A stretch of DNA of 64,000 nucleotides from Bacteroidales bacterium (lineage in GTDB: Bacteria; Bacteroidota; Bacteroidia; Bacteroidales; PUMT01): contig SLOE01000050.1 of NCBI GenBank assembly GCA_007132715.1, positions 4,640 to 68,639 on the forward strand. The letters run 5' to 3'. This document shows positions 17,818 through 58,314 of the stretch, piece by piece. Position 1 is the stretch's first letter; every line of letters starts with the position of its first letter. The notes beneath the pieces were generated by a model. It had not been told where the DNA came from, did not search any database, and saw only the letters and a list, made by a program, of their open reading frames with translations. The position numbers were made by a program, and so were the translations under genes.

Positions 17818-17821
17818 AGTA

Positions 17822-22399: not shown

Positions 22400-22494
22400 T
22401 TTCCAAAAGTACATGATTTTTGCATCATTTGAATATCCCATGAACGTCAAACCTTGCGTGCCAAATCGACGAGACGAGATAAGTTCTTCCCGTC

Positions 22495-23574
22495 CTAGCG
22501 TTGCCCGAAAGCCATAACCCGTGGCGCAATGCCCGTATTATATGTTTCTTCCTGATCATCGTCATTAAAAATATGCAGTTTCCCCGGTGAAGTATAATCA
22601 GTGATCTCAAGGGTGAAAAAACGGCCGGTTGAGGGGCATGTTGCTGCATAGGAGAAATTCTCCGGCAACATGGGTTCAGATGGCTGAACCTGACTGTCAA
22701 TACTCATTGAATATACGCCTCCAGCTTCTCCGTAATAGAGAGTTCCTCCGTCAGCAGAAACTGAGAGCCATGAGGGGTTGAAACCGTCACCTGTAGTTCC
22801 GATCACCACGCTGCGGTCCGCCTTCAAAGTCACCGGATTGATTCGTACAAGCCTGGAATCGGTCTCTTCAATTATTTCCGTCCAGGTCTCATTGTACACC
22901 ACCTTGCCCCTTGAAAGGACCCAGACGTTATTGTCGCGGTCGGTTACAAGCGCTACAGGGATATCGCCGGCCTCAACGGTGGCAACCACCTCATTACTGC
23001 GGGTGTCGATTACCGACACCGTGTTGTCGAATGCCCAGCCTCCACTGTTGGCAACATACAGGTGGTTGCCGGCCACCACCATCTGTTCCGGCCCCATTCC
23101 GACATCGATGGTATCGGTAATTATTCCGCTTTCCAGCTCAATACTGTATACGTGACCGTCAAGGTTGCCGTTTGAAAGGTAGCCGGATCCCTTCCCTGTA
23201 TAAGCGAAATACCTTGGATATGTAAAACCTGTTATGGTAGAAATCGATTCAAAGGTTACCAGGTCAACCACTTCGATCTTCTGCGAGTTGTTGGCCACTA
23301 TTACTCCAAGATCTCCGGCCAGGGTAAAGGATTGTACCACATCGCCGGCAGGCCGGCCGTTGACATGTTCAAAGAGGTTGTTCACGACTATGTTGGAGTC
23401 GGGGTCGTACCAGCTTATAGAGCCGTTGCTGGCGTTGAAGGCCCCTTCACAGGCTATGAATACTCCCCTTGCATAGCCTTCCCGCCGGGGGGTATCATCC
23501 TCTTTTTCACACGAGATAAAAAATATCGTACCTGCAGCTAACATGAAATTTAGCATTGTTTTTCTGAGATCCAT
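22495..23574 (-). CDS. Surface lipoprotein, YncE-like beta-propeller (possible corrinoid-capture accessory protein)
   Basis: Lipoprotein signal (FFISCEKEDD). The protein has repeated beta-strand blades (VANNSQKIEVVD, LYVANSGG, VSVIDTRSNEV). It lies immediately downstream of the riboswitch-controlled TonB-dependent receptor. Confidence 0.65.
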   Translation of the reverse strand: MDLRKTMLNFMLAAGTIFFISCEKEDDTPRREGYARGVFIACEGAFNASNGSISWYDPDSNIVVNNLFEHVNGRPAGDVVQSFTLAGDLGVIVANNSQKIEVVDLVTFESISTITGFTYPRYFAYTGKGSGYLSNGNLDGHVYSIELESGIITDTIDVGMGPEQMVVAGNHLYVANSGGWAFDNTVSVIDTRSNEVVATVEAGDIPVALVTDRDNNVWVLSRGKVVYNETWTEIIEETDSRLVRINPVTLKADRSVVIGTTGDGFNPSWLSVSADGGTLYYGEAGGVYSMSIDSQVQPSEPMLPENFSYAATCPSTGRFFTLEITDYTSPGKLHIFNDDDQEETYNTGIAPRVMAFGQR

Positions 23575-23668
23575 CTTTTAAGTTTATTCATTGAAACGGT
23601 GATTAATGTGAGAATAAGTATTGCGATCATTTGCCCCCATGCAGTGCCAATAGTTATATCTGTTTTTT

Positions 23669-25729: not shown

Positions 25730-25740
25730 CTGTAACAGGA

Positions 25741-25930
25741 TCTGGCAGGTCTTCTGACTTACTCCCCTTCAGGACGCCTTCCCATTGCCGTAAACGGCAA
25801 CAGTGGCAAGAATGCCCTGAAGGATTGACGGAGATTACAGCAGCGGGTACTGTCCGGGATTCTCACCCGGTTCCCTTTTCATCCCGTTTGCAGGAAGTTG
25901 CAAGCAGGAACCAATCCTGATGCAAATATA
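25741..25930 (-). promoter_or_regulatory. Cobalamin (adenosylcobalamin-type) riboswitch
   Basis: The minus-strand sequence contains GGUUCC...AAAAGGGAACCGGGUGAGAAUCCCGGACAGUACCCGCUGCUGUAA...GCCACUG...GGGAAGGCG...AGUCAGAAGACCUGCC (B12 box). It ends about 12 nt before the receptor ATG at 25729. Confidence 0.9.
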
Positions 25931-40405: not shown

Positions 40406-41026
40406 ATGGAAAATAAACTTCAGGAATTAACTGAGAAGATCTATGCTGAAGGGGTCGATAAGGCCAATAAAGAGGCTCAGCAGATTATTGACAATGCCAG
40501 GGCCGAGGTTGAGAAGATGCAGGAAAAGGCACAGGAAGATGCCGGCCAGATAATTGAAAAGGCTAAGAAGGAAGCAGAGGAGATTAAGAAGAATGTGAAC
40601 TCTGAAGTTAAGCTTTCGGCAAGGCAGGCGATTAATACCATCAAGCAGCAGATCACAGGTCTGATAACGGCAAAGGCTGCCGGTGAGAATATAAAAAAGG
40701 CTTTTAAGGACAAGGAATTTCTTCAGAAGATTATTGAGACAGCCGTGAAAAACTGGGATCCTAAGTCAGGCAAAACTATGGATATGGTTATTTTGTTACC
40801 GGAAAAGGACAGGAAGGAGCTTGACGATTATTTTAACAAAAAGCAGAAGGCTCTGCTGGATGCCGGACTGGAGATCAGATTTGATGACAGCATGGAGGCA
40901 GGTTTCAAGATAGGACCCAAAGATGGCAGTTACCAGATCAGCTTTACGGATGAGGATTTTGAGAATTTTTTCAGAAACTACCTCAGGCCCCGTACCAAAG
41001 AATTGCTTTATCCGGAAAAAGATTAG
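40406..41026 (+). CDS. V-type ATP synthase subunit E
   Basis: 206-aa ORF with a charged helical N-terminus (KIYAEGVDKANKEAQQIIDNARAEVEKM). It is the first gene of the V-ATPase operon. Confidence 0.85.
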   Translation: MENKLQELTEKIYAEGVDKANKEAQQIIDNARAEVEKMQEKAQEDAGQIIEKAKKEAEEIKKNVNSEVKLSARQAINTIKQQITGLITAKAAGENIKKAFKDKEFLQKIIETAVKNWDPKSGKTMDMVILLPEKDRKELDDYFNKKQKALLDAGLEIRFDDSMEAGFKIGPKDGSYQISFTDEDFENFFRNYLRPRTKELLYPEKD

Positions 41027-41154
41027 TGCCGGATGGTAAGGTTGTCAGCAACTACTGCTGCGGCAACTGCAACCGGTTTATCCCGGCAGATCCGGGCCCG
41101 GTTTTAAAAGTGATGATCAAGTATTAATATGAAATTAACCTGTATAATTCCATA

Positions 41155-41985
41155 ATGTTTGAAAGAAACTATTACTACCTGGTAGCCGGACTGCCTGACA
41201 TTCTGATCGACCAGAAAAAACTCAGCTTTTCCATAGCCGATTTCAGGGAGGATATGGAGTATCATTTGCACCCTGATGATTACAGGCTTGTTGAGATGCT
41301 GCACCTTCCGGCCGATAACAATAATCTGCTGAATCTTCTGATGAAATCGGGCGGGGAATTTGATGATAGCGGTAAGTATTCACAGGAAGAACTTGAGGAG
41401 GAGATCAGGGAGCCAGGAGCTGCACCCGGATACATGCAGCGGTTCATTACCGCCTATAAATCAGAAACCTCCGTTTTTGAGGGACTGTCCTGGGAGGACC
41501 AGCTCACCTGGCTCTATTATGATCATGTCAGGGGGTGCTCCAATAAGTTTCTGCGGGATTGGTTTGAGTTTGACCTCAACATAAGGAACATTGTTGCAGG
41601 CATCAATGTAAGGAAGCACAAGCTGAAGGGGAAAAAGTACCTTATCGGCGACAATTATATTGTCCAGGCCGTAAGGAAAAGCACCCTGAAGGACTTCGGC
41701 CTGGCAAATGACTTTGAATACATGGAGAAGCTGATTTCGGTCCAGGACAATGATAACCTCCTGGAGAGGGAGAAGGCAATGGACATTATGAGGTGGGACT
41801 TTCTGGACGAGGCCAATACATTTAACTATTTCACAGTAGAGGTATTGCTGGCTTATGTCATCAAGTTGCAGATGGTGCAGCGCTGGCTGGATATGGATCA
41901 GGAGACCGGACAGGAGTTGTTCAGGAAACTGCTTGATCAGCTTGAGAAAAGCTATGAGTTTCCCAAAGAGTTTTCGGAAAAATAG
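41155..41985 (+). CDS. DUF2764-type protein (subunit C-like component of Bacteroidota V-ATPase operons)
   Basis: 276-aa ORF starting MFERNYYYLVAGLPD. It lies between the E and A subunit genes, as in known Bacteroidota V-ATPase operons. Confidence 0.75.
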   Translation: MFERNYYYLVAGLPDILIDQKKLSFSIADFREDMEYHLHPDDYRLVEMLHLPADNNNLLNLLMKSGGEFDDSGKYSQEELEEEIREPGAAPGYMQRFITAYKSETSVFEGLSWEDQLTWLYYDHVRGCSNKFLRDWFEFDLNIRNIVAGINVRKHKLKGKKYLIGDNYIVQAVRKSTLKDFGLANDFEYMEKLISVQDNDNLLEREKAMDIMRWDFLDEANTFNYFTVEVLLAYVIKLQMVQRWLDMDQETGQELFRKLLDQLEKSYEFPKEFSEK

Positions 41986-42015
41986 TATAAAATAATTCGC
42001 TAACCATATTTTATA

Positions 42016-43785
42016 ATGAAAGAAAATAATATAACCAGGGGTAAAGTGACCGGAGTTATAGCCAACCTTGTGATGGTTGATGTTGACGGACCGGTTTCTC
42101 AGAATGAAATTTGCTATATCAATCTCGAAGGCGTCAGGCTGATGGCAGAGGTCATCAAGGTTTTTGAGAAACGTGCCTACATCCAGGTATTTGAGAGTAC
42201 CAGGGGGTTGAAGGTCGGCACTGATGTCGAGTTTACCAGGGGGATGCTCGAGGTAACACTCGGTCCCGGAATTCTTTCCCGGAATTACGATGGACTTCAG
42301 CATGACCTCAACAAGATGGACGGGGTGTTCCTGAAGAGGGGTGATTATACCGCCGCTCTGGACGACAAAAAGAAATGGACGTTCAAGCCGCTGGCAAAGA
42401 AGGGCGACCAGGTTCTGGCCGGTGACTGGCTGGGCGAGGTGAATGAGAATGAACAGCCGCACAAGATCATGGTACCTTTCAAATTCGAGGGTAAATACAA
42501 GGTTAAAAGCGTTGCGGATGAGGGTGAGTACACTGTGAATGACGAGATCGCTGTTCTGACCGACGGGAAAAACAACGAGGTGCCGGTTACCATGGTCCAG
42601 AAGTGGCCCGTCAAGATACCTATCAAGACCTACAGGAATAAACCACGACCTTTCAAACTTCTTGAGACCGGGGTCAGGACCATGGATACACTTAACCCGA
42701 TCGTGGAGGGTGGAACAGGGTTCATTCCCGGCCCTTTCGGTAGCGGCAAGACTGTTCTCCAGCACGCGATATCAAAACAGGCAGAAGCTGATATAGTTGT
42801 TGTTGCAGCCTGTGGGGAGAGAGCAAACGAGGTTGTTGAGATCTTTGCCGAGTTCCCGGAGATCGATGACCCGAGAACCGGCAGGAAGCTGATGGAGCGC
42901 ACCACAATTATCGCCAACACATCAAATATGCCTGTTGCAGCCCGTGAGGCATCTGTATATACAGCCATGACCCTTTCGGAATATTATCGCGCCATGGGTC
43001 TCAAGGTCCTGCTGCTTGCCGACTCAACATCGAGATGGGCACAGGCCCTCAGGGAGATGTCAAACCGCATGGAGGAGCTTCCCGGCCCGGATGCCTTCCC
43101 GATGGACCTTCCGGCAATTATTTCCAACTTCTATTCAAGGGCGGGCTTTGTTTACCTGAATAACGGCGAATCCGGTTCCATAACATTTATAGGTACCGTA
43201 TCACCTGCGGGTGGTAACCTGAAGGAACCTGTGACCGAATCGACCAAAAAGGCAGCACGCTGTTTCTACGCTCTTTCACAGCAGCGTGCCGACAGCAAGC
43301 GCTACCCTGCGATCGATCCGATTGACAGCTATTCGAAGTATATCGAATATCCCGAGCTGCAGGATTATATAAAGGAGAAGATATCCGATACATGGGTGGA
43401 CAACGTGATGCTTGTTAAAAATATACTTATCAGGGGCAAGGAGGCTTCGGAGCAGATCAACATCCTGGGAGATGATGGCGTGCCCATCAGTTATCATGTT
43501 GATTTCTGGAAGTCCGAGGTTATAGATTTTATCATTCTCCAGCAGGACGCATTTGACCCGATTGACCGTTCGTGCCCGATGCCCAGGCAGAAGTACATGC
43601 TTGACAAGGTTCTGGATGTTTACAATACAGAATTTGAGTTTGAATCATTTGAAGAGGTTAACCCCTATTTCAAGCGGATTATCAACGAGCTCAAACAGAT
43701 GAACTATTCGGAGTTTGAATCTGAGCAGTTTAAGAGACATGAAAAAGAATTGTATTATATAATCGACGAAAAGAAATCAAAGTAA
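42016..43785 (+). CDS. V-type ATP synthase catalytic subunit A
   Basis: 589-aa ORF with Walker A GPFGSGKT, LLADSTSRWAEALRE-like LLADSTSRWAQALRE, and VSPAGG. Confidence 0.95.
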   Translation: MKENNITRGKVTGVIANLVMVDVDGPVSQNEICYINLEGVRLMAEVIKVFEKRAYIQVFESTRGLKVGTDVEFTRGMLEVTLGPGILSRNYDGLQHDLNKMDGVFLKRGDYTAALDDKKKWTFKPLAKKGDQVLAGDWLGEVNENEQPHKIMVPFKFEGKYKVKSVADEGEYTVNDEIAVLTDGKNNEVPVTMVQKWPVKIPIKTYRNKPRPFKLLETGVRTMDTLNPIVEGGTGFIPGPFGSGKTVLQHAISKQAEADIVVVAACGERANEVVEIFAEFPEIDDPRTGRKLMERTTIIANTSNMPVAAREASVYTAMTLSEYYRAMGLKVLLLADSTSRWAQALREMSNRMEELPGPDAFPMDLPAIISNFYSRAGFVYLNNGESGSITFIGTVSPAGGNLKEPVTESTKKAARCFYALSQQRADSKRYPAIDPIDSYSKYIEYPELQDYIKEKISDTWVDNVMLVKNILIRGKEASEQINILGDDGVPISYHVDFWKSEVIDFIILQQDAFDPIDRSCPMPRQKYMLDKVLDVYNTEFEFESFEEVNPYFKRIINELKQMNYSEFESEQFKRHEKELYYIIDEKKSK

Positions 43786-45110
43786 TGGAAACTAAAGCTT
43801 TTCAGAAAATATACACGAAGATAACCCAGATCACCAAGGCAACCTGTTCACTGAATGCCGAGGGTGTAGGTTATGAGGAACTGGCCTCGGTTAACGGCCG
43901 CCTGGCTCAGGTTGTTAAGATACAGGGGCAGAATGTGACCCTCCAGATATTCGGAGGTACCGAAGGTATTCCTTCAAATGCCGAGGTTACATTTTACGGG
44001 AGGCCCCCGGTAATCAAGGTGAGCGATGACCTTGCAGGCCGTTTCTTCAATTCATTCGGACTGCCGATAGATGGCGGACCCGAGGTTGAAGGTGACGAGA
44101 GGGAGATAGGCGGGCCCTCGGTGAACCCGGTGAGGAGGGAACAGCCATCCGAGCTTATTGCAACCGGAATTGCGGGTATCGACCTGAACAATACCCTTGT
44201 CACGGGTCAGAAGATACCTTTCTTTGCCGATCCCGACCAGCCGTTCAACGAGGTTATGGCAATGGTCGCCCTTAGGGCAAAGGCCGACAAGATTATTCTA
44301 GGCGGCATGGGGCTGACCAATGACGATTATCTTTATTTTAAGAATGTTTTTGACAATGCCGGTGCACTTGACCGTATCGTCAGCTTTGTAAACACCACAG
44401 AGGACCCTCCGGTTGAACGCCTTCTTGTACCCGACATGGCCCTTACCGCTGCAGAGTATTTTGCTGTCGACAAGAACGAGAACGTGCTGGTGCTCCTAAC
44501 AGATATGACCCTGTATGCCGATGCGCTCAGTATCGTTTCAAACAGGATGGACCAGATACCTTCGAAGGACAGTATGCCCGGATCGCTATACAGTGACCTG
44601 GCAAAGCTGTATGAAAAGGCCGTTCAGTTCCCGGAAGGCGGTTCGATCACCATTATTGCCGTAACCACCCTTTCAGGCGGCGATATTACTCACGCGATAC
44701 CTGACAATACTGGTTATATTACCGAGGGACAGCTATTCCTGCGCCGTGATACCGAGATCGGAAAGGTGATAGTCGACCCTTTCAGGAGCCTCTCCCGCCT
44801 CAAGCAACTTGTGATCGGCAAGAAGACCAGGGAAGATCATCCGCAGGTGATGAACACTGCGGTACGTCTCTATGCCGATGCGGCCAATGCCCGTACCAAG
44901 CTTGAGAACGGATTTGACCTGACCGACTATGACGAGAGGACGCTCAAGTTCGCTAAGGAATATTCGAACAAGCTGCTGGCCATTGATGTCAACATCGATA
45001 CCGACACTATGCTCAATACGGGATGGGAGCTTTTCAGCGATAACTTCACCCAGGCAGAGGTGGGTATCCGCAAGGAGATGACGGACAAATACTGGCCGCG
45101 TAAAAAATAG
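43785..45110 (+). CDS. V-type ATP synthase subunit B
   Basis: 441-aa ORF with a non-catalytic nucleotide-binding fold (LVLLTDMT..., GSITIIAVTTLSGGDITHAIPDNTGYITEGQ). Its ATG overlaps the subunit A stop. Confidence 0.95.
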   Translation: METKAFQKIYTKITQITKATCSLNAEGVGYEELASVNGRLAQVVKIQGQNVTLQIFGGTEGIPSNAEVTFYGRPPVIKVSDDLAGRFFNSFGLPIDGGPEVEGDEREIGGPSVNPVRREQPSELIATGIAGIDLNNTLVTGQKIPFFADPDQPFNEVMAMVALRAKADKIILGGMGLTNDDYLYFKNVFDNAGALDRIVSFVNTTEDPPVERLLVPDMALTAAEYFAVDKNENVLVLLTDMTLYADALSIVSNRMDQIPSKDSMPGSLYSDLAKLYEKAVQFPEGGSITIIAVTTLSGGDITHAIPDNTGYITEGQLFLRRDTEIGKVIVDPFRSLSRLKQLVIGKKTREDHPQVMNTAVRLYADAANARTKLENGFDLTDYDERTLKFAKEYSNKLLAIDVNIDTDTMLNTGWELFSDNFTQAEVGIRKEMTDKYWPRKK

Positions 45111-45144
45111 TTGTCCGGATTACTGAACTGAAAATAACGATTGC

Positions 45145-45750
45145 ATGGCCATAAAATTTCAATACAACAAAACTTCGCTTCAGGACCTTAACAAGCAGTT
45201 GAATATCAGGGTAAGGGCTTTGCCGACGATAAAGAACAAGGAGACGGCGCTGAGGATGGAAGTGAAGAAAGCCAAGGACGAGGCATCTGCACTTGACGAA
45301 AAGCTCGAGGAGAAGATCAGAGCCTATGATTACATGGCAAGGTTATGGGTGGAATTTGACCAAAATCTTATAACCATAAGCGATGTTGAAGTATCTGTCA
45401 AAAAGATAGCAGGGGTTAGGACACCGGTGCTTGATGACATTATTTTCGAAATAGCCGACTTCAGCCTGATAAATAAACCGGACTGGTACTTTGACGGGAT
45501 AAAGATACTGAAAGAGCTTGCCCAGGTAGCGATCGAGAGGGAATTTTTCTACAGGAAGATGAAGCTTCTTGACCATGCCAGGAAAAAGACAACCCAGAAG
45601 GTAAACCTTTATGAGAAGGTTCAGATCCCCGGTTATGAGGAGGCTATACTGAAGATCAAGAGGTTCCTCGAGGATGAGGAAAACCTTGACAAGTCATCCC
45701 AGAAAATAGTTAAAACACGTCAACAGCAAGCAGAGGAGGCACAGATATGA
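45145..45750 (+). CDS. V-type ATP synthase subunit D
   Basis: 201-aa helical ORF (TSLQDLNKQL...RALPTIKNKETAL) in the operon position after subunit B. Confidence 0.85.
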   Translation: MAIKFQYNKTSLQDLNKQLNIRVRALPTIKNKETALRMEVKKAKDEASALDEKLEEKIRAYDYMARLWVEFDQNLITISDVEVSVKKIAGVRTPVLDDIIFEIADFSLINKPDWYFDGIKILKELAQVAIEREFFYRKMKLLDHARKKTTQKVNLYEKVQIPGYEEAILKIKRFLEDEENLDKSSQKIVKTRQQQAEEAQI

Positions 45751-47564
45751 TATCACCAATGATCAAGTATTCACTGCTGATATATCACCAGGAGTACGAA
45801 GATATCCTTGATGAACTGCGTGATCTCGGAGTGGTGCATGTGGTTGAAAAGGAGCAGGAGATAAGTGATGAGATCAGGGATAAATACCAGTACATAGACA
45901 AGGTGGATAAAGCCATAAGGTTCCTTAAGAACAGGGAAAATGACCATCCGGTAATAGGAGGCGAGCTTTACGGCAAGGATGTCTATGAGGAGCTTATCGA
46001 GCTGCAATCCCGCCAGGAGGGAATAATAAACAAGTTAAATACATTAAGGAAAGAGATACACGAGCTGGAGCCCTGGGGAAACTTTTCTCCCGATATGGTT
46101 GATAAACTCAGGGAGGAAGGTATAACCCTGAGGTTCTTTATCTGTCCCACCCGGAAGTTTGAACAGGAGTGGAAAGAGAAGTATACGATAGAGGAGATCA
46201 GTGTACATGGGGGACAAAACCATTTTATATTAATCTCCAGGGAGGGTGAAGAGGTAGATATCCCTGCCGAGGAGATTGCTCCGCCTTCACGCTCACTTGC
46301 CGGCCTCCGTGAAGAAAAAGAGGGTATCAAACAGGAGATGGAGGTCATTGAGAACAGGTTTGAGGAGATGGCGCGGATGGATCTGGATGCCCTTGTAAGG
46401 TACAAAAATGAGCTTATCCAGGAGCTGGAGTATGAAAAGGCGGTCCACAATACGGCAAGGGAAGCAGAAGAAAAGCTTATGATACTTGAGGGATGGGTCC
46501 CCAAAGAAGCAGCTCCGAAACTGAACAAATACCTTGACAACAGTTCGGCCGCATATATTACCTCGGTGCCGGGGCCGGATGACAAAGCTCCTATTCACCT
46601 TAAGAACAAGGGTTTTGCCAGCAAGTTTGAAAAGCTTGGTGAGCTATACTCCCTGCCAACCTATAAGGAGCTTGACATGACGCCTTTCTTTGCGCCTTTC
46701 TATGCTCTCTTCTTCGGCTTCTGCCTCGGCGATGCAGGATACGGTATACTGATGGCAGTTGCAGCAATTTTTGCCAGGAAAAAGGTGCAGAAAGAGTTGA
46801 AGCCCATGGCCGTGCTGGTTTTTTACCTGGGCCTGGCAACCCTGTTTTTCGGACTGATAGGCGGTACATTCTTCGGGATAAACCTTTACCATGCCGATCT
46901 GCCGGTATACCGCGACCTGCAGGCAATGTTTACCGAGCGGGGTACGGATATCAACATGATCCTGTTCTACCTTTCGATTATCCTGGGAGCTATCCAGATA
47001 ATATTCGGTATGGTGCTCAAGGCTGTTAATGAGACAATACAGTTCGGGTGGAAGTATGCCATGGGGACCTATGGCTGGCTCACCCTCATTGTGGGCAGCA
47101 TTCTGGTCTATCTGACAAGCATGGTAACGGGAATTCCCATGGAAGCCCTTAACCCGGTATTATATATGATACTTGGTGTAAGCGGCTTGATGATACTGTT
47201 ACTTAACAATCTGAACAGGAATATATTTACCAATTTCGGACTTGGTCTCTGGAACACCTACAATATGGCTACAGGACTTCTGGGTGATATTCTGTCGTAT
47301 ATCCGGCTCTTTGCCCTGGGTATTGCAAGTGCCATCCTGGGATTTGTATTCAACAGCCTGGCCGTATCGATGAGCGGCAATATTCCTGTGGTAAGCGCCA
47401 TAGTGATGATCATCATCCTGATTTTCGGTCACAGCATCAACCTGTTTATGTCGGGGCTCGGGTCGTTTGTCCACCCAATGCGTCTCACTTTCGTGGAATT
47501 TTACAAAAATGCCGGTTTTTCCGGGGGAGGCAAGAAATATAATCCATTTAGAAATATAGAATAG
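45747..47564 (+). CDS. V-type ATP synthase subunit I (a-subunit, membrane stator)
   Basis: 605-aa ORF with a soluble coiled N-terminal half and a polytopic C-terminal half that carries the conserved LSYIRLFALG arginine motif. Confidence 0.92.
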   Translation: MISPMIKYSLLIYHQEYEDILDELRDLGVVHVVEKEQEISDEIRDKYQYIDKVDKAIRFLKNRENDHPVIGGELYGKDVYEELIELQSRQEGIINKLNTLRKEIHELEPWGNFSPDMVDKLREEGITLRFFICPTRKFEQEWKEKYTIEEISVHGGQNHFILISREGEEVDIPAEEIAPPSRSLAGLREEKEGIKQEMEVIENRFEEMARMDLDALVRYKNELIQELEYEKAVHNTAREAEEKLMILEGWVPKEAAPKLNKYLDNSSAAYITSVPGPDDKAPIHLKNKGFASKFEKLGELYSLPTYKELDMTPFFAPFYALFFGFCLGDAGYGILMAVAAIFARKKVQKELKPMAVLVFYLGLATLFFGLIGGTFFGINLYHADLPVYRDLQAMFTERGTDINMILFYLSIILGAIQIIFGMVLKAVNETIQFGWKYAMGTYGWLTLIVGSILVYLTSMVTGIPMEALNPVLYMILGVSGLMILLLNNLNRNIFTNFGLGLWNTYNMATGLLGDILSYIRLFALGIASAILGFVFNSLAVSMSGNIPVVSAIVMIIILIFGHSINLFMSGLGSFVHPMRLTFVEFYKNAGFSGGGKKYNPFRNIE

Positions 47565-47596
47565 ACATTAAATTATTTACTTAACTTAATCTTTAA

Positions 47597-48058
<462 letters not shown>

Positions 48059-48202: not shown

Positions 48203-48634
48203 ATGCCTGAAATGATAATGTCAAACAGACTGAATCTGCGCAGCTTTACAATGACCTTTCTGGGCTTTGCTGCCTTAATCTATGTAATGGCTGGTTGTGA
48301 GAAGGATGACCTGGTTGCCATAAGGAGCATTGACACTGTTGAACCGGTTATTGTCTGGAGAACAGCTGAAACGGGCGGTAAATTTGTTGCCAACAGGAAG
48401 ATCGATCTGGTCGAATTCGGTGTATGCTACAATACATCTCCAAATCCAACAGTTGAAGATAACGTGGCACCTGGAACCGGCCTGGAGGAGATAATAGAAG
48501 CAAGCAGGTATGAGGCAGAGTTCAAAAGCACCATATCACTGCTTTTGCCCGGCACCACTTATTATATAAGGGCTTATGTGACTACCGGCTCAGGTACGGC
48601 TTACGGGAACCAGCTTACCTTTACAACAAACTGA
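48203..48634 (+). CDS. Hypothetical lipoprotein with an Fn3/Ig-like domain
   Basis: Lipobox MAGCEKDD. GVCYNTSPNPTVEDN...TYYIRAYV...YGNQLTFTT resembles the short beta-sandwich domains common in Bacteroidota surface proteins. Confidence 0.5.
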   Translation: MPEMIMSNRLNLRSFTMTFLGFAALIYVMAGCEKDDLVAIRSIDTVEPVIVWRTAETGGKFVANRKIDLVEFGVCYNTSPNPTVEDNVAPGTGLEEIIEASRYEAEFKSTISLLLPGTTYYIRAYVTTGSGTAYGNQLTFTTN

Positions 48635-48669: not shown

Positions 48670-49602
48670 ATGATATCCATTTGCATACCTGTTTATAACT
48701 ACAAAGTTGGGAGGTTGGTCAGGGATCTTGAATTACAGGCATATAGTTGCGGTGTTCCCTGTGAATTGGTAATAATAGATGACCATTCACCTAAAGCCTT
48801 AAGGGAACTTAACGAGGCTCCCTGCAGCAGGCACAGGTATATTAAGCTGGATGCCAATGTGGGGCGCTCGCGTATACGCAATATGTTTACACAATATGCC
48901 AGGTATGACTGGCTTCTGTTCCTTGATTGTGATTCAGAGATCATTACCGGCGAATTCCTGAAAAACTACATCAGTGAAATATCAGGAAGTGATGCGCCTG
49001 TTATTTGCGGGGGCAGGATATATGACAAGAACCTGCCTTCACCCGGGGAAAGGCTACGGTGGAACTTCGGCAGGGAAAGAGAAAGTATACCGGCTGCTGT
49101 CCGGCAGAAAAGCCCGGTCCGCTATTTTATGACCAACAACTTCCTGATAAGGAGAGAGGTTTTTGATTCCGTGAAATTTGATGAGAGGATAACCCAATAC
49201 GGGTACGAGGATACACTTTTCGCATATAATCTGGGGAAACTAGGCCTGAACATAACGCACATTGACAATCCCCTGATGCACTCGTGTGTTGAGACCAATT
49301 CGGCATTCATTGAAAAAACCGACAGGGGTATTGCAAACCTGGTGAGTATTATCCAATATACCGGCCAGGACACCGGCTTTATCAATACCGTCAGGATATT
49401 GGGCGTATATTTCGGCATGAGAAAGAATATTGCGGGCATACTTGCCGGGTATATACTGATGTTGTTGCGGCCGGCTTTAAGGATCATGCTTTGCCGCCGG
49501 GTTTCATCACTCTACCTGTTCGACCTGTACAAGCTTGGTTTGCTGCATCTGCTGATGAGAAAAAAAGGACCCCCGAAAAGAACTCCGGGGGTCAGCAGTT
49601 AA
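48670..49602 (+). CDS. Glycosyltransferase family 2
   Basis: The ORF starts ISICIPVYN and has VIIDDHS and a DCD(S) DxD-like motif, consistent with a GT-A fold. Confidence 0.8.
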   Translation: MISICIPVYNYKVGRLVRDLELQAYSCGVPCELVIIDDHSPKALRELNEAPCSRHRYIKLDANVGRSRIRNMFTQYARYDWLLFLDCDSEIITGEFLKNYISEISGSDAPVICGGRIYDKNLPSPGERLRWNFGRERESIPAAVRQKSPVRYFMTNNFLIRREVFDSVKFDERITQYGYEDTLFAYNLGKLGLNITHIDNPLMHSCVETNSAFIEKTDRGIANLVSIIQYTGQDTGFINTVRILGVYFGMRKNIAGILAGYILMLLRPALRIMLCRRVSSLYLFDLYKLGLLHLLMRKKGPPKRTPGVSS

Positions 49603-49673
49603 AACAGGCGTAATTTATCCTGATCCTTTATATGCGGTAATACTTCAACCGGTGCTGTAAAGATTTTTTATTA

Positions 49674-50474
49674 TTACCCTATCATTATTACCGAGGCCGG
49701 ATCATTAACCCTCAGTGTGAAAGATTCGGTGAGGAACAACCGGACCTCCTTGTCGTTATGCGATTCATAACCTATTGAGATATCCTGCCCGATAACCAGG
49801 TTGATATCCTCTGCGGAGGAAGGTACCAGGAATGCCTCTTCAATGAAATGGCACATAATTACCGGTCCTCCCAGCAGTTTTTCCAGCTGAAGCTTAAGCG
49901 GATATCCCTTGAAATGTGACGATATCTGCTTCCACAACGCGGGACTGACTACCAGTGTCCAGGGACCGGGGACTGATGCATCCATCATCTTTGTGATGCC
50001 CTCCGAAACCGTTGAGAGCAGGCCTTCTATGCTGCCGGGCAACTGCAGCTTTTCTGAAGCATTAACATCTTTGAGACCGGTGACTGATGCATTTTTCAAT
50101 CCGTAGTAGACAGTCTTTTCCTCAAACTCAGCCAGCTTGACGGCCGCATCTTCCAGCGGATCAAGATCTGCATCCCTGGCTCCCCTGGCCAGGTTGTCCA
50201 GTTCCCATATGTTAAGTTTAAAGCTTACCCGTGGTTCGATAAGCGGCTGTACCTTGTGAATGCCGTAAACAACGCCTTTTTTATCCTGTCCGCCCGGAAT
50301 ATCAAGTCTTCCGGCAGGCACTGCAGCATAGTCCCATCCATATGGTCCGCTTATTTCGGCGAACCTTCGTGCTGAAAGATGAGAGTTGAGTATCTGTTTT
50401 GCTGCCGAATTGATTTCCTGCCATGCTTCGTCAGAAAGCGGGGCCAGTGATTGCTTTAATATGTCCATAACCAT
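49674..50474 (-). CDS. Encapsulin nanocompartment shell protein (family 1, linocin M18-like, HK97 fold)
   Basis: The 266-aa ORF aligns by eye along its length with Thermotoga maritima encapsulin: LKQSLAPLSDEAWQEI, GPYGWDYAAVP, WELDNLARG, LGQDISIGYES and RLFLTESFT. Confidence 0.92.
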   Translation of the reverse strand: MVMDILKQSLAPLSDEAWQEINSAAKQILNSHLSARRFAEISGPYGWDYAAVPAGRLDIPGGQDKKGVVYGIHKVQPLIEPRVSFKLNIWELDNLARGARDADLDPLEDAAVKLAEFEEKTVYYGLKNASVTGLKDVNASEKLQLPGSIEGLLSTVSEGITKMMDASVPGPWTLVVSPALWKQISSHFKGYPLKLQLEKLLGGPVIMCHFIEEAFLVPSSAEDINLVIGQDISIGYESHNDKEVRLFLTESFTLRVNDPASVIMIG

Positions 50475-50786
50475 TTATTTTATTTTTCCTATTCCCAGGT
50501 CAGACGGATTATCATCTTTGCCGTCCTCCTTAAAAAGTTGTTTTCTTAGTTCGTCGTCCCACGCAGGCATGTTCTTCCGCAGCCATTCGATGGTTTTGCA
50601 TGCATGTTCGATCTCTTCATCCCTGTTGTGGATAAGAATATCCCTCAGTTCTTCATCTTTGGTTGTAACAACGCGCTGGTGATACCAGTCCACTGCCTCA
50701 ACCTCTTCCTTGAGGCTGTTCAGCGCCCTTGAAAAATCCCTGTCGCGGGGACTGAGCTCTTCTACAGGTTCATGATAATTTGACAT
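50475..50786 (-). CDS. Encapsulated ferritin (EncFtn/Flp cargo) with a C-terminal encapsulin targeting peptide
   Basis: 103-aa ORF with EEVEAVDWYHQR and DEEIEH (Glu/Tyr/Glu/His ferroxidase ligands as in R. rubrum EncFtn). The C-terminal SDLGIGKIK resembles the GSLGIGSLK-type targeting peptide. Its stop codon abuts the encapsulin ATG. Confidence 0.88.
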   Translation of the reverse strand: MSNYHEPVEELSPRDRDFSRALNSLKEEVEAVDWYHQRVVTTKDEELRDILIHNRDEEIEHACKTIEWLRKNMPAWDDELRKQLFKEDGKDDNPSDLGIGKIK

Positions 50787-50985
50787 TTCCTTATCGTTTT
50801 ATGTTCAACAATCATATAAAACATAAAATTAAAGATTATAATGCCCAACACCAAATACCCAGGAACTGAATATTATTGTTTTATGCAATACACGGAAGAC
50901 GGAAAGGGTTAAGAATTCCGAAATCTGCCGGATACCTTCACAAAATCAAGTGTCCGGGTGACAGCACAGATTGTTGACACAGAAG

Positions 50986-51840
50986 TCAGAACCTGAGCGA
51001 CTTCAGGTAAGTGGCAGCAGATGCCAGACATGCCAGTCCGTCGACCACATTGTCCTTCTCAACGAAATAGTGCCTGATATCCTGGTCCACTGCCTCAGCA
51101 AGTACAGTGCCGAAATCGATTATGCCGCTTCCGGGACAGGCAAATGTCTCTTCCTCTCCCGGTGCCATGTCTTTGATATGGAGCAGGGGATACCTGCCGC
51201 GGTACTTCCTGAGTGTTTCAACCGGGTCGGCTCCACCTTTCCTGGTCCAGTAAATATCCAGTTCACACTTTACAAGTTGCTCATCGGTGTTCTCCATCAG
51301 GTAGTCAAACGGTACAACACCCTCTTCGGTGGCATGGAACTCAAGATCGTGATTGTGCCAGCAAAGGGTTAATCCCCGGCTCCTGCACACCTCACCGATC
51401 CTGTTCAACAGGTCGGCACTTGTCTTGCAGTCGTCGAGCGAAAGCGGGGCCCCTCCGAACCATGGCCAGTAAAGGACCGCATATTCAAGCTCAAGGGCGT
51501 TAAGCCTGTCCAGTGAGCGGTTCACCTCGTCCATGTTTTCTGAAAAAGTGGCGCCGCCTGCCACCACCTTCATCCCCAGGCTGCTCAGGTAACCCAGGAA
51601 GGATTGAGCCGAGTCGCCAAGGTAATTGCCTGTTTCAATCTCGGTGTAGCCCATGCCGGCGGTTGCTGCAAATACCTCCTGCCAGTCGCCGTCTCTCAGC
51701 TCATTTCTGATCATTCCGGTTATATAGCCTATGTTCTCAAGCTTCCTGACATCATCCCCGCAGGAAGTGAGGGTTTTCGGTATGAATGCCGCTGCCGTGC
51801 CGGCAGCAACGGTCTGGATAAACTTTCTTCTGTTAAGCAT
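50986..51840 (-). CDS. Sugar phosphate isomerase/epimerase (xylose isomerase-like TIM barrel) with a Tat signal
   Basis: 284-aa ORF with the twin-arginine motif NRRKFIQ. The TIM-barrel family is assigned from overall similarity only (moderate). Confidence 0.75.
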   Translation of the reverse strand: MLNRRKFIQTVAAGTAAAFIPKTLTSCGDDVRKLENIGYITGMIRNELRDGDWQEVFAATAGMGYTEIETGNYLGDSAQSFLGYLSSLGMKVVAGGATFSENMDEVNRSLDRLNALELEYAVLYWPWFGGAPLSLDDCKTSADLLNRIGEVCRSRGLTLCWHNHDLEFHATEEGVVPFDYLMENTDEQLVKCELDIYWTRKGGADPVETLRKYRGRYPLLHIKDMAPGEEETFACPGSGIIDFGTVLAEAVDQDIRHYFVEKDNVVDGLACLASAATYLKSLRF

Positions 51841-51851: not shown

Positions 51852-53186
51852 TTATCGGGTTATTTCGGGCAGTTTCCAGGGAGCCCTGTATGAAGGAGTA
51901 ACAAGTTCATTTGCCTTGTCGCTGTTTGTGAACCGGGAATTTACATCGTCCCAGACAAGCAATGATTCTCCTGTCCTTGCTGCAATATTCGGAACATGGA
52001 CATGGATTGCTGCTGCTCTGGCCGTTGAAGGTGGACATACCGGTTTTTCCCTTGATTTGATACAGTCAAGGAAATTTCTGACATGGTAGGGATGGGCCTC
52101 CCTGATACCGGAAATCTCTGTTGCATCTGCCTTATGACTTTGTGTTCCCCCATCCCATTCGGGTATGACCCTGTAGCCGTGCCTGTCGGTTATAACAGTA
52201 CCGTTGTCGCAAATAAATGCAACACCGTATGATTTACCCCAGGGTCCGCTTTGAATGCCCGCTGTCATCTCCCACGAGATGACATAATCCTTTTTAGGAT
52301 AGACTACCGTCATGGTGTCAAATGTTTCACGCTGCCTTTGCTGTCCGCTGTTGTTTGTTGCAAAGGTCATCACCTCTTCAGGTGCATCGATCAGGTCATT
52401 TACCCAGAGGCCCATGTCGATCAGGTGCACACCCCAGTCCGACATCAGTCCCCCGCCATAATCCCAGTAATGCCTCCATGAGCCGTGAAAGCGGCTCCTG
52501 TTAAAGGGTCTTTCGGGAGCAGGCCCAAGCCACATGTTGTAATCAACACCTTCGGGTACGGGTTCGTCATCCCTGAAGGGGGTGCCCAGTCCGTAGTTGA
52601 AGTTGCCCCATATCTTGACTTTTCTCAGTTTACCCAGTGAACCATTCCGTACCAGCCCGATGCTCTCCCTGAAGGCACGGTTGCTGCGTTGCTGCTGCCC
52701 CACCTGTACTATCTGGTTGTATCTGTCTGCAGCACTTACCATAATATTGCATTCGCCAATGGTGTTGGCCAGGGGTTTCTCGATGTACACGTCCTTGCCT
52801 GCCTGCAGGCAGTATACCATGTTCAGGCAGTGCCAGTGGTCGGGTGTGCCGATGATTACCGCATCAATGTCACTTTGCTCCAGCATCTTTCTGAAGTCGC
52901 TGTAGAGAGTGGGTTGCTGGTTGTATTCTTTCCTGATAGTTTCTGCACGCTCGTTGAGCACTCCCTCGTCTACATCACACATGGCTACACACCTGGTGTC
53001 TTCATTATCAAGATGGTCCCTCAGTATCTTGAAGCCAAAGTTCCTGCAGCCGATAACTGCAATATTGATCCTGTCGCTCGGTGCAACACGGGCGGCCCAT
53101 ACCCCGGAGGGGATCACTGTTGCCAGTCCGATCCCCGCTGAAGCCGCGGCAGTCTTACGTAAGAAATTCCTTCTGTTAATATCCAT
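51852..53186 (-). CDS. Gfo/Idh/MocA family oxidoreductase with a Tat signal
   Basis: The ORF is open to 53342, but the ATG at 53186 gives MDINRRNFLRKTAAASAG (Tat motif). It has a Rossmann motif (INIAVIGCRNFG) and EKP. Confidence 0.85.
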   Translation of the reverse strand: MDINRRNFLRKTAAASAGIGLATVIPSGVWAARVAPSDRINIAVIGCRNFGFKILRDHLDNEDTRCVAMCDVDEGVLNERAETIRKEYNQQPTLYSDFRKMLEQSDIDAVIIGTPDHWHCLNMVYCLQAGKDVYIEKPLANTIGECNIMVSAADRYNQIVQVGQQQRSNRAFRESIGLVRNGSLGKLRKVKIWGNFNYGLGTPFRDDEPVPEGVDYNMWLGPAPERPFNRSRFHGSWRHYWDYGGGLMSDWGVHLIDMGLWVNDLIDAPEEVMTFATNNSGQQRQRETFDTMTVVYPKKDYVISWEMTAGIQSGPWGKSYGVAFICDNGTVITDRHGYRVIPEWDGGTQSHKADATEISGIREAHPYHVRNFLDCIKSREKPVCPPSTARAAAIHVHVPNIAARTGESLLVWDDVNSRFTNSDKANELVTPSYRAPWKLPEITR

Positions 53187-53451
53187 GTTTAGAGATTTGG
53201 TAGGTATTGGGTTATTAAATGGTACTGCACCGAAAAATACAACGTTTATGTATAATATCAGCATAAACCGGTAAATTTTTTTAACAGAGACCGAAAGGCA
53301 GGGATGTAAGAGATCCCTGCCGGGCGGAGTTAATAAAGCCATTACTTTCGCAGTCTTTAAGGTAAGTATGCATTTGAAGTAAAAAAAGGTTATTTTTAGG
53401 GTTTGATAGAAAAAGCTGCCTTTTATAGAGGGGCACAGTAAAAATTTAGAA

Positions 53452-55359: not shown

Positions 55360-58314
55360 GTGCAGGAACCCACCGGAGATCTTGATCTTGTGTCACTGGA
55401 CAGGGAGCTGGCCGGAGAGCTCCTTTGCGATAAGGTGACCAGGCTGCTTTATGCTACAGACGCTTCGGTTTACAGGGAACTTCCAATTGCCGTATGCCAA
55501 CCGGTTAATGAGACTGATATCATTAAACTTGTCAGGTTTGCCTCGACGAACGGCTTGTCCGTTATACCACGGGGTGCCGGTACATCCCTGGCCGGGCAGG
55601 TTGTTGGCAACGGTATTGTTGCAGACGTATCCAGGTATATGAACCGGATCATCGAGTTCAATGCCGAAGAGAGGTGGGTAAGGGTTGAACCGGGGGTAGT
55701 GCTGGATGAACTTAACCAGTATCTCAGTCCCCACGGTCTCTTCTTCGGTCCCGAAACATCCACTTCAAACCGTTGCATCATCGGCGGAATGCTTGGCAAC
55801 AACTCCTGCGGTGCCCATTCGCTGATATACGGAAGCACCAGGGAACATACCCTGGAGGTGAGGGCCGTACTTTCAGACGGCAGCACTGCCGTTTTCGGAA
55901 GCATGACTACTGAGCAGTTCAAATACATGTGCAGGGGAGGGAATCTTGAGAACAGGATTTACAGGCATATCGACAAGACGTTGGGAGACAGCCGCACAGC
56001 CGCCCGTATAAGGAGCGGGTACCCCGATCATCGGGTGACACGCCGGAACACCGGTTATGCCCTTGATCTTCTGCTGGAGACGGCACCCTTTACCGATGGC
56101 GGCAAAGATATAAACCTCTGCACCCTGCTGGCAGGTTCTGAGGGCACCCTTGCCTTTACAACCGAGATCAAGCTTAACCTGGTCCCGCTGCCTCCTCCCT
56201 GCAAGGCACTGGTATGTGCGCACTTCAATACCCGTGAGGAAGCGCTGAGGGCGACCCGGCTGGCTCTTGAGTTCGGTCCGGGTGCGGTCGAGATGATGGA
56301 TGACATCATACTGAGACTTACCAGCGATAATATTGAGCAGAGGAAGAACCGCTTCTTCATTGAGGGAGCCCCGGCTGCCATACTGATAATTGAATTTACG
56401 GGAGAGACAGACGACCGGATCATTCAAACGGCCTCTGCCATGGAGAAGCGTATGAGGGATGCCGGTTACGGCTATCATTTTCCCGTCATCACGGGTAAAG
56501 ATATTCCCAGGGTGTGGAGCCTCAGGAAAGCCGGACTGGGAGTGCTGTCGACCATGAAAGGGGATGCCAAGCCGGTATCTCTGATCGAGGATACATCGGT
56601 GAGAGTGGATGTGCTGCCGGAGTATATTGACGAGGTGAATGCCCTGCTTGGAAAGTACGGCAAGGAGGTGGTTTTTCATGCCCATGTGGGGTCGGGAGAG
56701 CTTCATATGCGGCCGGTACTGAACCTGAAAGATCCCGTCGATGTCGATCTTTTTTACAGGATAGGCAGGGATGTAGCTCTTCTGGTAAGGAAATACCGCG
56801 GCTCCCTCAGCGGCGAGCATGGCGACGGGCGTCTCAGGGGAGAGTTCATTCCCCTGGTCCTTGGAGAGGATAATTACAGTCTGTTATGCGAGCTTAAGGA
56901 AATCTGGGATCCGCAGGGTGTGTTCAACCCGGGCAAGATAACCGGAACTCCACCCATGAACACCCATCTTCGTTATGTTCCCGGGAGGGAGGTGAACGAA
57001 TACGAGACCCTGTTTGATTTTTCACCCTGGGGAGGAATAGTCCGTTTTACCGAGCAATGCAATGGATCGGGTGACTGCCGCAAGAGTGAGAAAGCAGGAG
57101 GGACCATGTGCCCCAGCTTCATGGCAACGAGGGATGAACATGCGACCACCAGGGCCAGGGCAAACCTCATGAGGGAATTCCTTACTAATCAACCGGGCAG
57201 TGACCCGTTCAGCAGCAGGGAACTTTATGATATTTTGGACCTTTGTCTCTCATGCAAGGGGTGTAAGTCGGAGTGCCCCTCTAACGTCGATATGGCTAAG
57301 CTTAAAGCCGAGTTCCTTCAGCACTGGTACGATGCAAACGGCGCTCCCCTCAGGTCCCGGCTGGTTGCCAACATTACCCTGATAAACAGGATCGGATCAG
57401 TATGGCCCGGATTGTTCAATGCTGTTGTAAGCAACCCTGCCGTTTCGAAACTGGTAAAAACTCTTGCCGGGTTTGCACCTGAAAGGAGCATACCCCGGCT
57501 GCACTCCCAAACCCTCCGTGGGTGGATGCGCCGTTACCGGTTCAGGATAGACGGCGGTGACCACCACAATGGCAGGGTGCTTCTTTTTGCAGATGAGTTT
57601 ACCGGTTACAATGACGTGCATGTGGGCATCAGGGCCGTTATGCTGCTCGACCGCCTCGGTTACCGTACTGACATTAGGAAACACGGTGTGAGCGGACGTA
57701 CATTCATCTCCAAGGGTTTCCTGCGCAGGGCCAGGAAGATCGCACACAGGAACATTGAACTTTTTTCAGGCATATCAGTCAATTATGTTGCGATTGTCGG
57801 TATAGAACCTTCAGCCATCCTCACCTTCAGGGATGAATATCCCGATCTTGCAGGGCGTGAGTTTACCGACAGGGCCAAAAAGCTGGCCGGATCAGTATTC
57901 ATGATTGATGAATTCATTGCATCTGAGTCCGACAAAGGAAAGATAACAACCGGGCAGTTTACCCGGGAGCCGGCAGAAGTGCTTCTGCACGGCCATTGCC
58001 AGCAGAAGGCGGTGGCTTCAACCGCCCCGGCCATTAAGATGCTTTCCCTTCCGGAGAATTACAGGGTGAGGGAGATCCCGTCAGGATGCTGCGGCATGGC
58101 CGGATCATTCGGGTATGAGAAGGAACATTATGAGTTGTCTGTGAAGGTAGGCGAGCTGGTACTCTTTCCTGAAGTTAGGGCAGCTTCTCCCGGTACCCTG
58201 ATAGCTGCACCCGGCACGAGTTGCAGGCACCACATAACCGACGGCACCGGGAGAAAGGCCCTTCACCCCGTTGAGATCCTGTATGACGCACTCACACAGT
58301 CGCCAGAAACCTGA
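55360..58314 (+). CDS. FAD-linked oxidase fused to Fe-S/CCG domains (YdiJ/GlcD-GlcF-like D-2-hydroxyacid dehydrogenase)
   Basis: 984-aa ORF with a GTG start. It has an FAD-binding PCMH region (VIPRGAGTSLAGQ), a ferredoxin-type CxxCxxCxxxCP (CLSCKGCKSECP) and the CCG motif SGCCGMAGSFG. Confidence 0.9.
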   Translation: MQEPTGDLDLVSLDRELAGELLCDKVTRLLYATDASVYRELPIAVCQPVNETDIIKLVRFASTNGLSVIPRGAGTSLAGQVVGNGIVADVSRYMNRIIEFNAEERWVRVEPGVVLDELNQYLSPHGLFFGPETSTSNRCIIGGMLGNNSCGAHSLIYGSTREHTLEVRAVLSDGSTAVFGSMTTEQFKYMCRGGNLENRIYRHIDKTLGDSRTAARIRSGYPDHRVTRRNTGYALDLLLETAPFTDGGKDINLCTLLAGSEGTLAFTTEIKLNLVPLPPPCKALVCAHFNTREEALRATRLALEFGPGAVEMMDDIILRLTSDNIEQRKNRFFIEGAPAAILIIEFTGETDDRIIQTASAMEKRMRDAGYGYHFPVITGKDIPRVWSLRKAGLGVLSTMKGDAKPVSLIEDTSVRVDVLPEYIDEVNALLGKYGKEVVFHAHVGSGELHMRPVLNLKDPVDVDLFYRIGRDVALLVRKYRGSLSGEHGDGRLRGEFIPLVLGEDNYSLLCELKEIWDPQGVFNPGKITGTPPMNTHLRYVPGREVNEYETLFDFSPWGGIVRFTEQCNGSGDCRKSEKAGGTMCPSFMATRDEHATTRARANLMREFLTNQPGSDPFSSRELYDILDLCLSCKGCKSECPSNVDMAKLKAEFLQHWYDANGAPLRSRLVANITLINRIGSVWPGLFNAVVSNPAVSKLVKTLAGFAPERSIPRLHSQTLRGWMRRYRFRIDGGDHHNGRVLLFADEFTGYNDVHVGIRAVMLLDRLGYRTDIRKHGVSGRTFISKGFLRRARKIAHRNIELFSGISVNYVAIVGIEPSAILTFRDEYPDLAGREFTDRAKKLAGSVFMIDEFIASESDKGKITTGQFTREPAEVLLHGHCQQKAVASTAPAIKMLSLPENYRVREIPSGCCGMAGSFGYEKEHYELSVKVGELVLFPEVRAASPGTLIAAPGTSCRHHITDGTGRKALHPVEILYDALTQSPET

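Follow-up and report, generated by a model that had tools for sequence, protein, structure and literature searches.

Two adjacent open reading frames (ORFs) on the minus strand, at positions 49674 to 50786 of a 64,000-nucleotide stretch of a Bacteroidales genome (contig SLOE01000050.1; the whole stretch is referred to here as the window), raise the question of whether this bacterium carries the genes of an iron-storage nanocompartment. An earlier note on this DNA had proposed that they encode an encapsulated ferritin (EncFtn) and a family-1 encapsulin shell. Our results indicate that the pair is very probably a classical family-1 encapsulin operon of the Flp/EncFtn type (Flp or FLP, ferritin-like protein), which would build an iron-oxidising and iron-mineralising nanocompartment. 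The proposed identity was supported by curated hidden Markov model (HMM) cut-offs, ferroxidase residues, a docking motif, an HK97-type fold and a conserved cargo-to-shell gene order. Family membership, the catalytic and docking residues, the fold, the gene order, selection and the boundary motifs were observed directly, and nothing contradicted the family-1 encapsulin assignment. Both ORFs were found at the coordinates and on the strand that had been given for them, and their main features are as follows.

50786 to 50475, minus strand: EncFtn cargo coding sequence, 103 amino acids plus TAA stop

EncFtn residues 3 to 87: two-helix ferroxidase core

EncFtn residues 86 to 96: acidic linker KEDGKDDNPSD, 11 residues from the core to LGI, of which S95 and D96 already begin the docking peptide

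50478 to 50504, minus strand: C-terminal targeting (docking) peptide SDLGIGKIK, EncFtn residues 95 to 103

50474 to 49674, minus strand: encapsulin shell ORF as first called, 266 amino acids

49674 to 50468, minus strand: family-1 encapsulin shell coding sequence, most likely 264 amino acids from MDILK; the alternative ATG at 50474 gives 266 amino acids

HMM searches had been suggested as a check on the assignment, and in these both proteins scored above curated cut-offs, with family E-values of 1e-38 and 1e-77 for the two proteins in profile searches; the observation is therefore not due to chance. The small protein matched PF22277 (EncFtn-like) with 130.8 bits (cut-off 27) over profile positions 1-85 of 85, and the NCBIfam model TIGR04535, “encapsulin-associated ferritin-like protein”, with 130.9 bits (cut-off 125). 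When compared with solved structures (3k6c, 5n5f, 5da5, 7oe2), it gave E-values from 5e-25 to 2e-22, the best being that for NE0167 (3k6c, 5e-25), while the EncFtn proteins of H. ochraceum (5n5f, 7oe2) and R. rubrum (5da5) matched at approximately 1e-22 each. We rejected a cargo of the EncB/EncC type found in T=3 systems, as NF058679 reached 57.9 bits, below its cut-off of 90, and M. xanthus EncC matched the window EncFtn at 0.0024 only.

The ferroxidase-centre pattern that had been read in this ORF is present in full. All seven di-iron and entry-site residues of R. rubrum EncFtn (E31, E32, E34, W38, Y39, E62 and H65) have identical counterparts in the window protein (E27, E28, E30, W34, Y35, E58 and H61, respectively), and all seven are invariant in 121 aligned sequences, i.e., the query and 120 homologs. 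The mapping onto R. rubrum used an offset from the alignment to solved EncFtn structures, and the numbering takes residues 1-6 of the R. rubrum protein as given. The ferroxidase-centre and entry-site residues are likewise identical in H. ochraceum EncFtn (5N5F, 7OE2/7ODW) and in the R. rubrum structure (5DA5). The short motifs that had been quoted for the two proteins (EEVEAVDWYHQR, DEEIEH, NPSDLGIGKIK, GPYGWDYAAVP, WELDNLARG and RLFLTESFT) were all recovered, with the correction that a further one, given as LGQDISIGYES, actually reads IGQDISIGYES.

In the systems of R. rubrum, H. ochraceum and T. maritima, targeting peptides anchor the EncFtn decamers within a T=1 shell; these decamers are ferroxidase-active and cannot store mineral, and the shell is the store (PMC8346489, PMC11202242, 10.1101/2021.04.15.439977). 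By analogy, the window EncFtn would form annular decamers whose dimer interfaces hold a di-iron ferroxidase centre made up of E28, E58 and H61, with Y35 nearby, and E27, E30 and W34 would constitute its entry site.

The C-terminal tail of the cargo was likewise found to fit the description of a targeting peptide. The sequence PSDLGIGKIK conforms to the GxLGIxxL docking motif, which was modelled as GSLGIGSLR in the density of the H. ochraceum shell and was also seen in the T. maritima crystal (bioRxiv 10.1101/2021.04.15.439977). Binding in T=1 shells is driven by the L-G-I core together with a basic C-terminus or terminal Lys, as in NTGGDLGIRK, the native peptide of T. maritima, and DGSLGIGSLKG, the consensus for T=1, and the window tail carries both features, having in common with T. 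maritima a DLGI core and basic end. In the 115 homologs that could be parsed, the tail follows the consensus L-G-I-G-K-I-K, whereas the preceding linker has a length of 10 to 34 residues (median 22) and a variable sequence; a conserved tail behind a hypervariable linker is what marks a functional peptide that is flexibly tethered. By analogy with solved homologs, the peptide SDLGIGKIK would be predicted to dock, via its LGI core and terminal lysines, in a hydrophobic cleft that the P-domain and the N-terminal helix of the shell protomer present on their inner face. The H. ochraceum motif, which the window tail matches closely, differs from it in the first position (Ser in the window) and the last anchor (Ile in the window). 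It also occupies residues 117-125 of a 131-residue chain, implying a much longer linker than the 11 residues found here; this H. ochraceum linker offsets the decamers by approximately 3 nm from the wall (10.1101/2021.04.15.439977).

The match to 3k6c bears on an alternative explanation, in which the small protein is a free, non-encapsulated protein like NE0167 and the shell is empty or holds another cargo. Short FLPs without a targeting peptide form the “s-FLP” class, of which NE0167 (3k6c) is a representative (PMC11202242), and the window protein, at only 103 amino acids, has this structure as its top solved match. However, s-FLPs possess neither a disordered C-terminus nor a targeting peptide, and the presence of a linker and a canonical tail therefore places the window protein in the class of FLPs with targeting peptides (FLP-TP), despite 3k6c being its best match in the PDB. 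Furthermore, its gene lies directly upstream of the shell gene, and the SDLGIGKIK tail is conserved in the homologs described above. When the tails of all window ORFs were scanned for an LGI-type motif as a sign of a second cargo, only EncFtn and one spurious overlapping ORF were recovered, leaving no other window ORF with a credible targeting tail. We consider a free s-FLP very unlikely.

The larger protein was assigned to the family-1 encapsulins by NF041155, the family 1 encapsulin equivalog model (260 bits, cut-off 100, profile positions 1-260 of 261), and by PF04454, Linocin_M18, which it matched end to end (259.4 bits, cut-off 24.3). It had been described as colinear with T. maritima encapsulin, and the comparison agreed with this description (E-value of 9e-58 over residues 3-265, 261 aligned residues and approximately 38% identity, 100/261, in a global alignment). 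The H. ochraceum shell matched at 4e-50 and mycobacterial T=1 shells at approximately 1e-43. Altogether, T=1 shells gave E-values from 1e-58 to 1e-40, while the T=3/T=4 shells (M. xanthus EncA, Q. thermotolerans) gave only 1e-10 to 1e-6.

Failure of the shell protein to match HK97-fold encapsulin models had been named as an outcome that would speak against the assignment. An AlphaFold2 model of the shell, built on 56 homologs, had a mean predicted local distance difference test score (pLDDT) of 90.8 and a predicted template-modelling score (pTM) of 0.87. In Foldseek comparisons this model matched the encapsulin fold, with template-modelling (TM) scores of 0.91-0.94 and root-mean-square deviations (rmsd) of ~1.9 A to 27 solved T=1 encapsulin chains, including 0.94 and 1.9 A for T. 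maritima and a TM score of 0.93 for H. ochraceum; against T=3/T=4 protomers the corresponding values were 0.75-0.82 and 4-8 A. The fit is consistent with an HK97-type architecture of A-domain, P-domain and E-loop that lacks extensions of the phage type. Since both the sequence and the model are closer to T=1 than to T=3/T=4 shells, the shell would most likely be a T=1 assembly of 60 subunits, ~24 nm across. Sixty protomers would most likely enclose a few EncFtn decamers in this T=1 icosahedron; a shell of the H. ochraceum type with about four decamers is the architecture expected for the window pair.

The T. maritima encapsulin (maritimacin, TM_0785; 3DKT, 7KQ5, 7MU1), which resembles the window system in its cargo-to-shell order, also has a flavin site, with residues Arg79 and Trp87. 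These correspond to R80 and W88 of the window shell and are invariant in 56/56 aligned shells; the window shell may bind flavin. The two systems differ in the five-fold pore loop (DASVPGPW in T. maritima, KDGIEGPY in the window) and in their hosts, T. maritima being a hyperthermophile and the window host a mesophile-type Bacteroidales, Marinilabiliales-like organism. The exact shell protein sequence was not on record in the assembly collection.

Encapsulins and phage capsids share the HK97 fold and are often confused, as pointed out in PMC8346489, and the shell gene might in principle be the remnant of a prophage capsid lying beside an unrelated ferritin-like protein gene. Against this, the shell had no PHROG match and scored 260 bits with the family-1 equivalog model, no terminase, portal, protease or integrase gene was found nearby, and the pairing with EncFtn is conserved, with purifying selection on both genes. 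Given the missing PHROG match and phage genes, this explanation is effectively refuted, and we assign it a negligible probability.

The junction between the family-1 cargo and shell genes was examined for the position of the shell start codon. The earlier note had the two genes abutting, with the TAA immediately followed by the ATG of the shell ORF; literally, the TAA at 50477-50475 is indeed followed directly by an ATG at 50474. However, this ATG is unique to the window among the related loci compared, whereas the start conserved in 14 related loci, ATGGAyAT (MDILK), lies at position 50468 here, and homologous shells have 263-264 amino acids. The conserved start is 6 nucleotides past the EncFtn stop in the window and 6-7 nucleotides past it in close relatives, in which the spacer does not contain an ATG (TAG ATT ACT, TAA AAA ATT and TAA ATC GCT). 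Thus, the real shell start is most likely at 50468, giving a predicted protein of 264 amino acids, and the genes would be close (6 nucleotides) rather than abutting.

The same junction bears on the possibility that read-through of the TAA produces an EncFtn-shell fusion mimicking the archaeal Flp-fusion encapsulins, in which Flp and shell form one polypeptide. The window ORFs are in the same frame with only the TAA between them, and this is also the case in two close relatives, L001 and L004 (related loci are given by such numbers where they must be told apart). However, the frame is not kept in two others, L002 and L003, so that read-through fusion is not a conserved feature, and both the length and the sequence of the spacer vary among relatives, which rules it out as such. 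In addition, the free C-terminal peptide is strongly conserved and would be redundant in a fusion. We regard read-through as extremely unlikely. On every sequence- and fold-level criterion the window pair agreed with EncFtn plus a family-1 shell, and it did not fit the s-FLP, Flp-fusion or EncB/C systems.

To determine how widely this two-gene arrangement is kept, we analyzed homologs and related loci. EncFtn homologs numbered 1968 at E<=1e-3, and the best 120 of these 1968 were inspected. The best match was 95% identical, and the inspected set contained many proteins from metagenome-assembled genomes (MAGs) of Bacteroidales or other Bacteroidota, several of them already named by NCBI; the same was true of shell homologs. 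The names used are “encapsulin-associated ferritin-like protein” and “family 1 encapsulin nanocompartment shell protein”. Flp/EncFtn proteins are the second-largest family-1 cargo class and have been reported from 23 bacterial phyla (Andreas & Giessen 2021, PMC8346489), and Bacteroidetes FLP systems from Geofilum rubicundum and Sunxiuqinia dokdonensis appear in the supplementary table of the same census (Andreas & Giessen 2021). The view that such systems are seldom annotated in Bacteroidota thus did not hold, given the many NCBI-named entries among the best 120 of the 1968 homologs and the systems in the 2021 census. These operons, together with PGAP-named proteins of Bacteroidales MAGs, share with the window the phylum, the two-gene architecture and a tail of the form [DS]LGIGKIK(K). 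The closest public relative, the Marinilabiliales MAG GCA_007695015.1, has 95% identical proteins in identical synteny, with the shell still labelled “bacteriocin” and the cargo unnamed.

A genome scan recovered 7 loci, from 6 Bacteroidales MAGs (4 of them from one soda-lake sediment series) and 1 Spirochaetia MAG, and in all 7 EncFtn was directly upstream of the shell gene. Wherever a related locus includes the junction, this order is kept (13/13 loci, from Bacteroidales and a single Spirochaetia MAG). Purifying selection acts strongly on both genes: in comparisons with L013, L001 and L004, the ratio of nonsynonymous to synonymous substitution rates (dN/dS) was 0.03-0.12 overall, with values of 0.03-0.12 for EncFtn and 0.05-0.09 for the shell. 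In contrast to the pair itself, the flanking genes (V-ATPase I and K, a hypothetical gene and glycosyltransferase family 2 (GT2) to one side of the pair, TIM-barrel, Gfo/Idh/MocA and AI-2E to the other) are shared only with the close relatives L001-L004, L010 and L013, and this flanking synteny is absent in L005-L008 and L011-L012. Because the flanking genes differ between lineages while the order of the pair is kept, the pair constitutes a self-contained module. A functional link of the pair to its neighbours was rejected, as the synteny with V-ATPase, GT2 and sugar-enzyme genes is confined to the close lineage.

Two of the close relatives have insertions between the TIM-barrel gene and EncFtn, a 910-residue ORF in L003 (2777-5509) and a GH28 family protein gene in L010 (4276-5673), indicating that the upstream junction is a variable spot. 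In Thermophagus (L008), the gap between EncFtn and shell is ~150 nucleotides, versus 6 nucleotides in the window.

In the proposed compartment, Fe2+ would enter via shell pores, be oxidised by EncFtn and be laid down as ferric mineral inside the shell; by this mineralisation, iron would be stored and Fenton-active iron kept from the cytoplasm. The same machinery might serve mainly in oxidative-stress defence, that is, in Fe2+ scavenging and prevention of Fenton chemistry in oxygen-sensitive Bacteroidales, rather than in bulk storage, a reading that differs from the one above in emphasis. A dual role of Flp encapsulins has been proposed in the literature (PMC8346489), and in Thermophagus sp. 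GCA_052400625.1 (L008, 4274-10296) the pair lies among a divergently oriented catalase gene and genes for a nitroreductase, an AhpC/1-Cys peroxiredoxin and a ZIP metal transporter, a neighbourhood that is consistent with a role in iron and oxidative stress. However, the neighbours are unrelated to stress in the window and in L001-L004, L010 and L013, and the context is another one in L011 and L012, where the pair stands beside Lon protease and housekeeping genes, so that gene context does not consistently indicate stress genes. Furthermore, no OxyR- or PerR-type site was identified upstream of the pair. Stress defence as the main role is therefore a possibility that we hold tentatively.

The proposed operon has putative boundaries in the window, which comprise the following elements.

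50855 to 50824, minus strand: promoter-like block TTTG-N20-TAATTTTA, 69 to 38 nucleotides upstream of the EncFtn ATG

50797 to 50828, strand not assigned: perfect 9-nucleotide inverted repeat TTTTATGTT / AACATAAAA with a 14-nucleotide spacer

49593 to 49568, with a T-run to 49558, minus strand: intrinsic-terminator-like hairpin, 11-bp stem with 7 G-C pairs

The region upstream of EncFtn had been described as AT-rich and 199 bp long; its length is exactly 199 bp and its G+C content 36%, compared with 51% for the window, and the proximal 110 nucleotides of this gap have a G+C content of only 28%. Promoters of Bacteroidota are of the -33 TTTG / -7 TAnnTTTG type, which the TTTG-N20-TAATTTTA block resembles, suggesting a promoter role. 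The block is the sole match in the 64-kb window (0 expected, 100 shuffles), and L001, L003, L004 and the more distant L005 carry the same motif with nearly the same spacing to the ATG; in L003 it remains with EncFtn despite the 910-residue gene inserted upstream. No sigma-70-type promoter was found for the pair. The inverted repeat overlaps both the -7-like box, at its 3' end, and the beginning of the leader, and might be an operator or a hairpin of the leader. Its TTTTATGTT / AACATAAAA arms, read by eye, are present in L001 and L004 with different spacers and absent from L002 and L003. The 199-bp region had no Rfam match (E<=1).

Downstream, the terminator-like hairpin lies ~80 nucleotides past the shell stop and is the only such site in 49400-51100, where it would be a candidate terminator for the pair. 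The hairpin falls inside the convergent GT2 gene (48670-49602), within its final ~12 codons, and the stem encodes the C-terminus of the GT2 protein, KKGPPKRTPGVSS. Both genes are probably co-transcribed, from a Bacteroidota-type promoter ~40-70 nucleotides upstream of EncFtn to the hairpin ~80 nucleotides past the shell gene.

Several observations weigh against the interpretation of the locus as an iron-mineralising encapsulin operon. First, the docking motif has Ser rather than Gly in its first position and Ile rather than Leu as its last anchor, and the 11-residue linker is short compared with the 10-20 or 10-40 residues described for known cargos, which might cause an altered loading geometry. 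Second, no Fur/PerR box was found upstream within 3 mismatches of the E. coli and B. subtilis consensus sequences, from which Bacteroidota sites may differ, and the window neighbours (V-type ATPase, GT2 and periplasmic sugar enzymes) offer no clue to regulation by iron or stress. Third, there is no terminator between the pair and the upstream sugar-enzyme genes, making read-through transcription possible. Finally, the assembly, loading, ferroxidase activity and mineralisation proposed here are extrapolated from homologs at 35-55% identity, and the assembly state, T number and regulation would similarly follow those of homologs.

The immediate surroundings of the pair were as the earlier note had them, with a glycosyltransferase gene on one side and sugar enzymes with signals of the twin-arginine translocation (Tat) type on the other. 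The convergent gene encodes the GT2 glycosyltransferase, and the other neighbours encode a xylose-isomerase-like TIM-barrel protein and a Gfo/Idh/MocA oxidoreductase; twin-arginine N-termini are visible in both of the latter proteins (MLNRRKFIQ... and MDINRRNFLRK..., respectively). The 496-residue Gfo/Idh/MocA ORF (51852-53342, minus strand) is probably over-extended at its N-terminus, because relatives align only from residue 16-37, the L013 ortholog is called with 443 residues and the twin-arginine sequence MDINRRNFLRK starts at residue 53. Further out, a V/A-type ATPase operon on the plus strand (40406-48058) comprises a 206-residue ORF, DUF2764, the A, B and D subunits, the I subunit and the K proteolipid, and is followed at 48203-48634 by a conserved 143-residue lipoprotein-like ORF that had no Pfam match. 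On the other side, a 984-residue fusion of FAD-linked oxidase and 4Fe-4S dicluster domains (55360-58314, plus strand) is followed by genes for a sodium:solute symporter, a family III CoA-transferase and subunits of a 2-oxoacid:ferredoxin oxidoreductase.

The remainder of the window contains a trp operon (1440-8208, minus strand; trpA, B, F, C, D, G and E), back to back with an aromatic amino-acid cluster (8695-16225, plus strand) encoding prephenate dehydrogenase, DAHP synthase, DHQ synthase, dehydroquinase, shikimate dehydrogenase, EPSP synthase and chorismate synthase. A minus-strand locus at 16789-25930 encodes a TonB-dependent receptor, a DUF5074 protein, a trypsin/PKD protein bearing a type IX secretion system (T9SS) sorting tail, a periplasmic binding protein, a FecCD permease and an ABC ATPase, and is headed by a cobalamin riboswitch (RF00174, 102 bits, 25727-25930). 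This TonB receptor/FecCD ABC locus, 25 kb away from the pair, was considered as an iron system and rejected; as it lies behind a cobalamin riboswitch, it looks like a locus for B12-type uptake, not for iron.

The window EncFtn belongs to a sub-clade with short linkers (103-104 amino acids), which comes mostly from soda-lake sediment MAGs. In its nearest short-linker sisters (P0002-P0012, 103-104 amino acids, 78-84% identity), some tails have drifted to SLGIRNTK, SLRIRNTK or SLNIGNIK, and Thr occupies the last hydrophobic anchor position in drifted tails. It is conceivable, although improbable in our judgement, that this soda-lake Bacteroidales sub-clade, with its linker of ~11 residues, represents a distinct cargo-loading geometry, maybe with a redox role for the flavin site. 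Several members of the sub-clade have swapped the last hydrophobic anchor (LGIRNTK or LNIGNIK for LGIGKIK). In such a geometry, decamers may be held tight against the shell wall or the five-fold pores, and their stoichiometry or mode of binding might differ; the invariant Arg/Trp flavin site could have an active redox role in iron release. If this were true, the compartment could matter as an iron store in alkaline, iron-poor habitats.

Altogether, the locus is real, intact and conserved, but ordinary, as systems of this kind are familiar and have been recorded from this phylum before. It is mildly distinctive only in its short cargo linker, in the drift of the docking motif among its sisters and in the invariant flavin-site residues of the T. 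maritima type. The value of the finding lies mainly in annotation: the appropriate label is “encapsulin-associated ferritin-like protein” for the cargo gene and “family 1 encapsulin nanocompartment shell protein” for the shell gene, and the pair adds one further Bacteroidales example.

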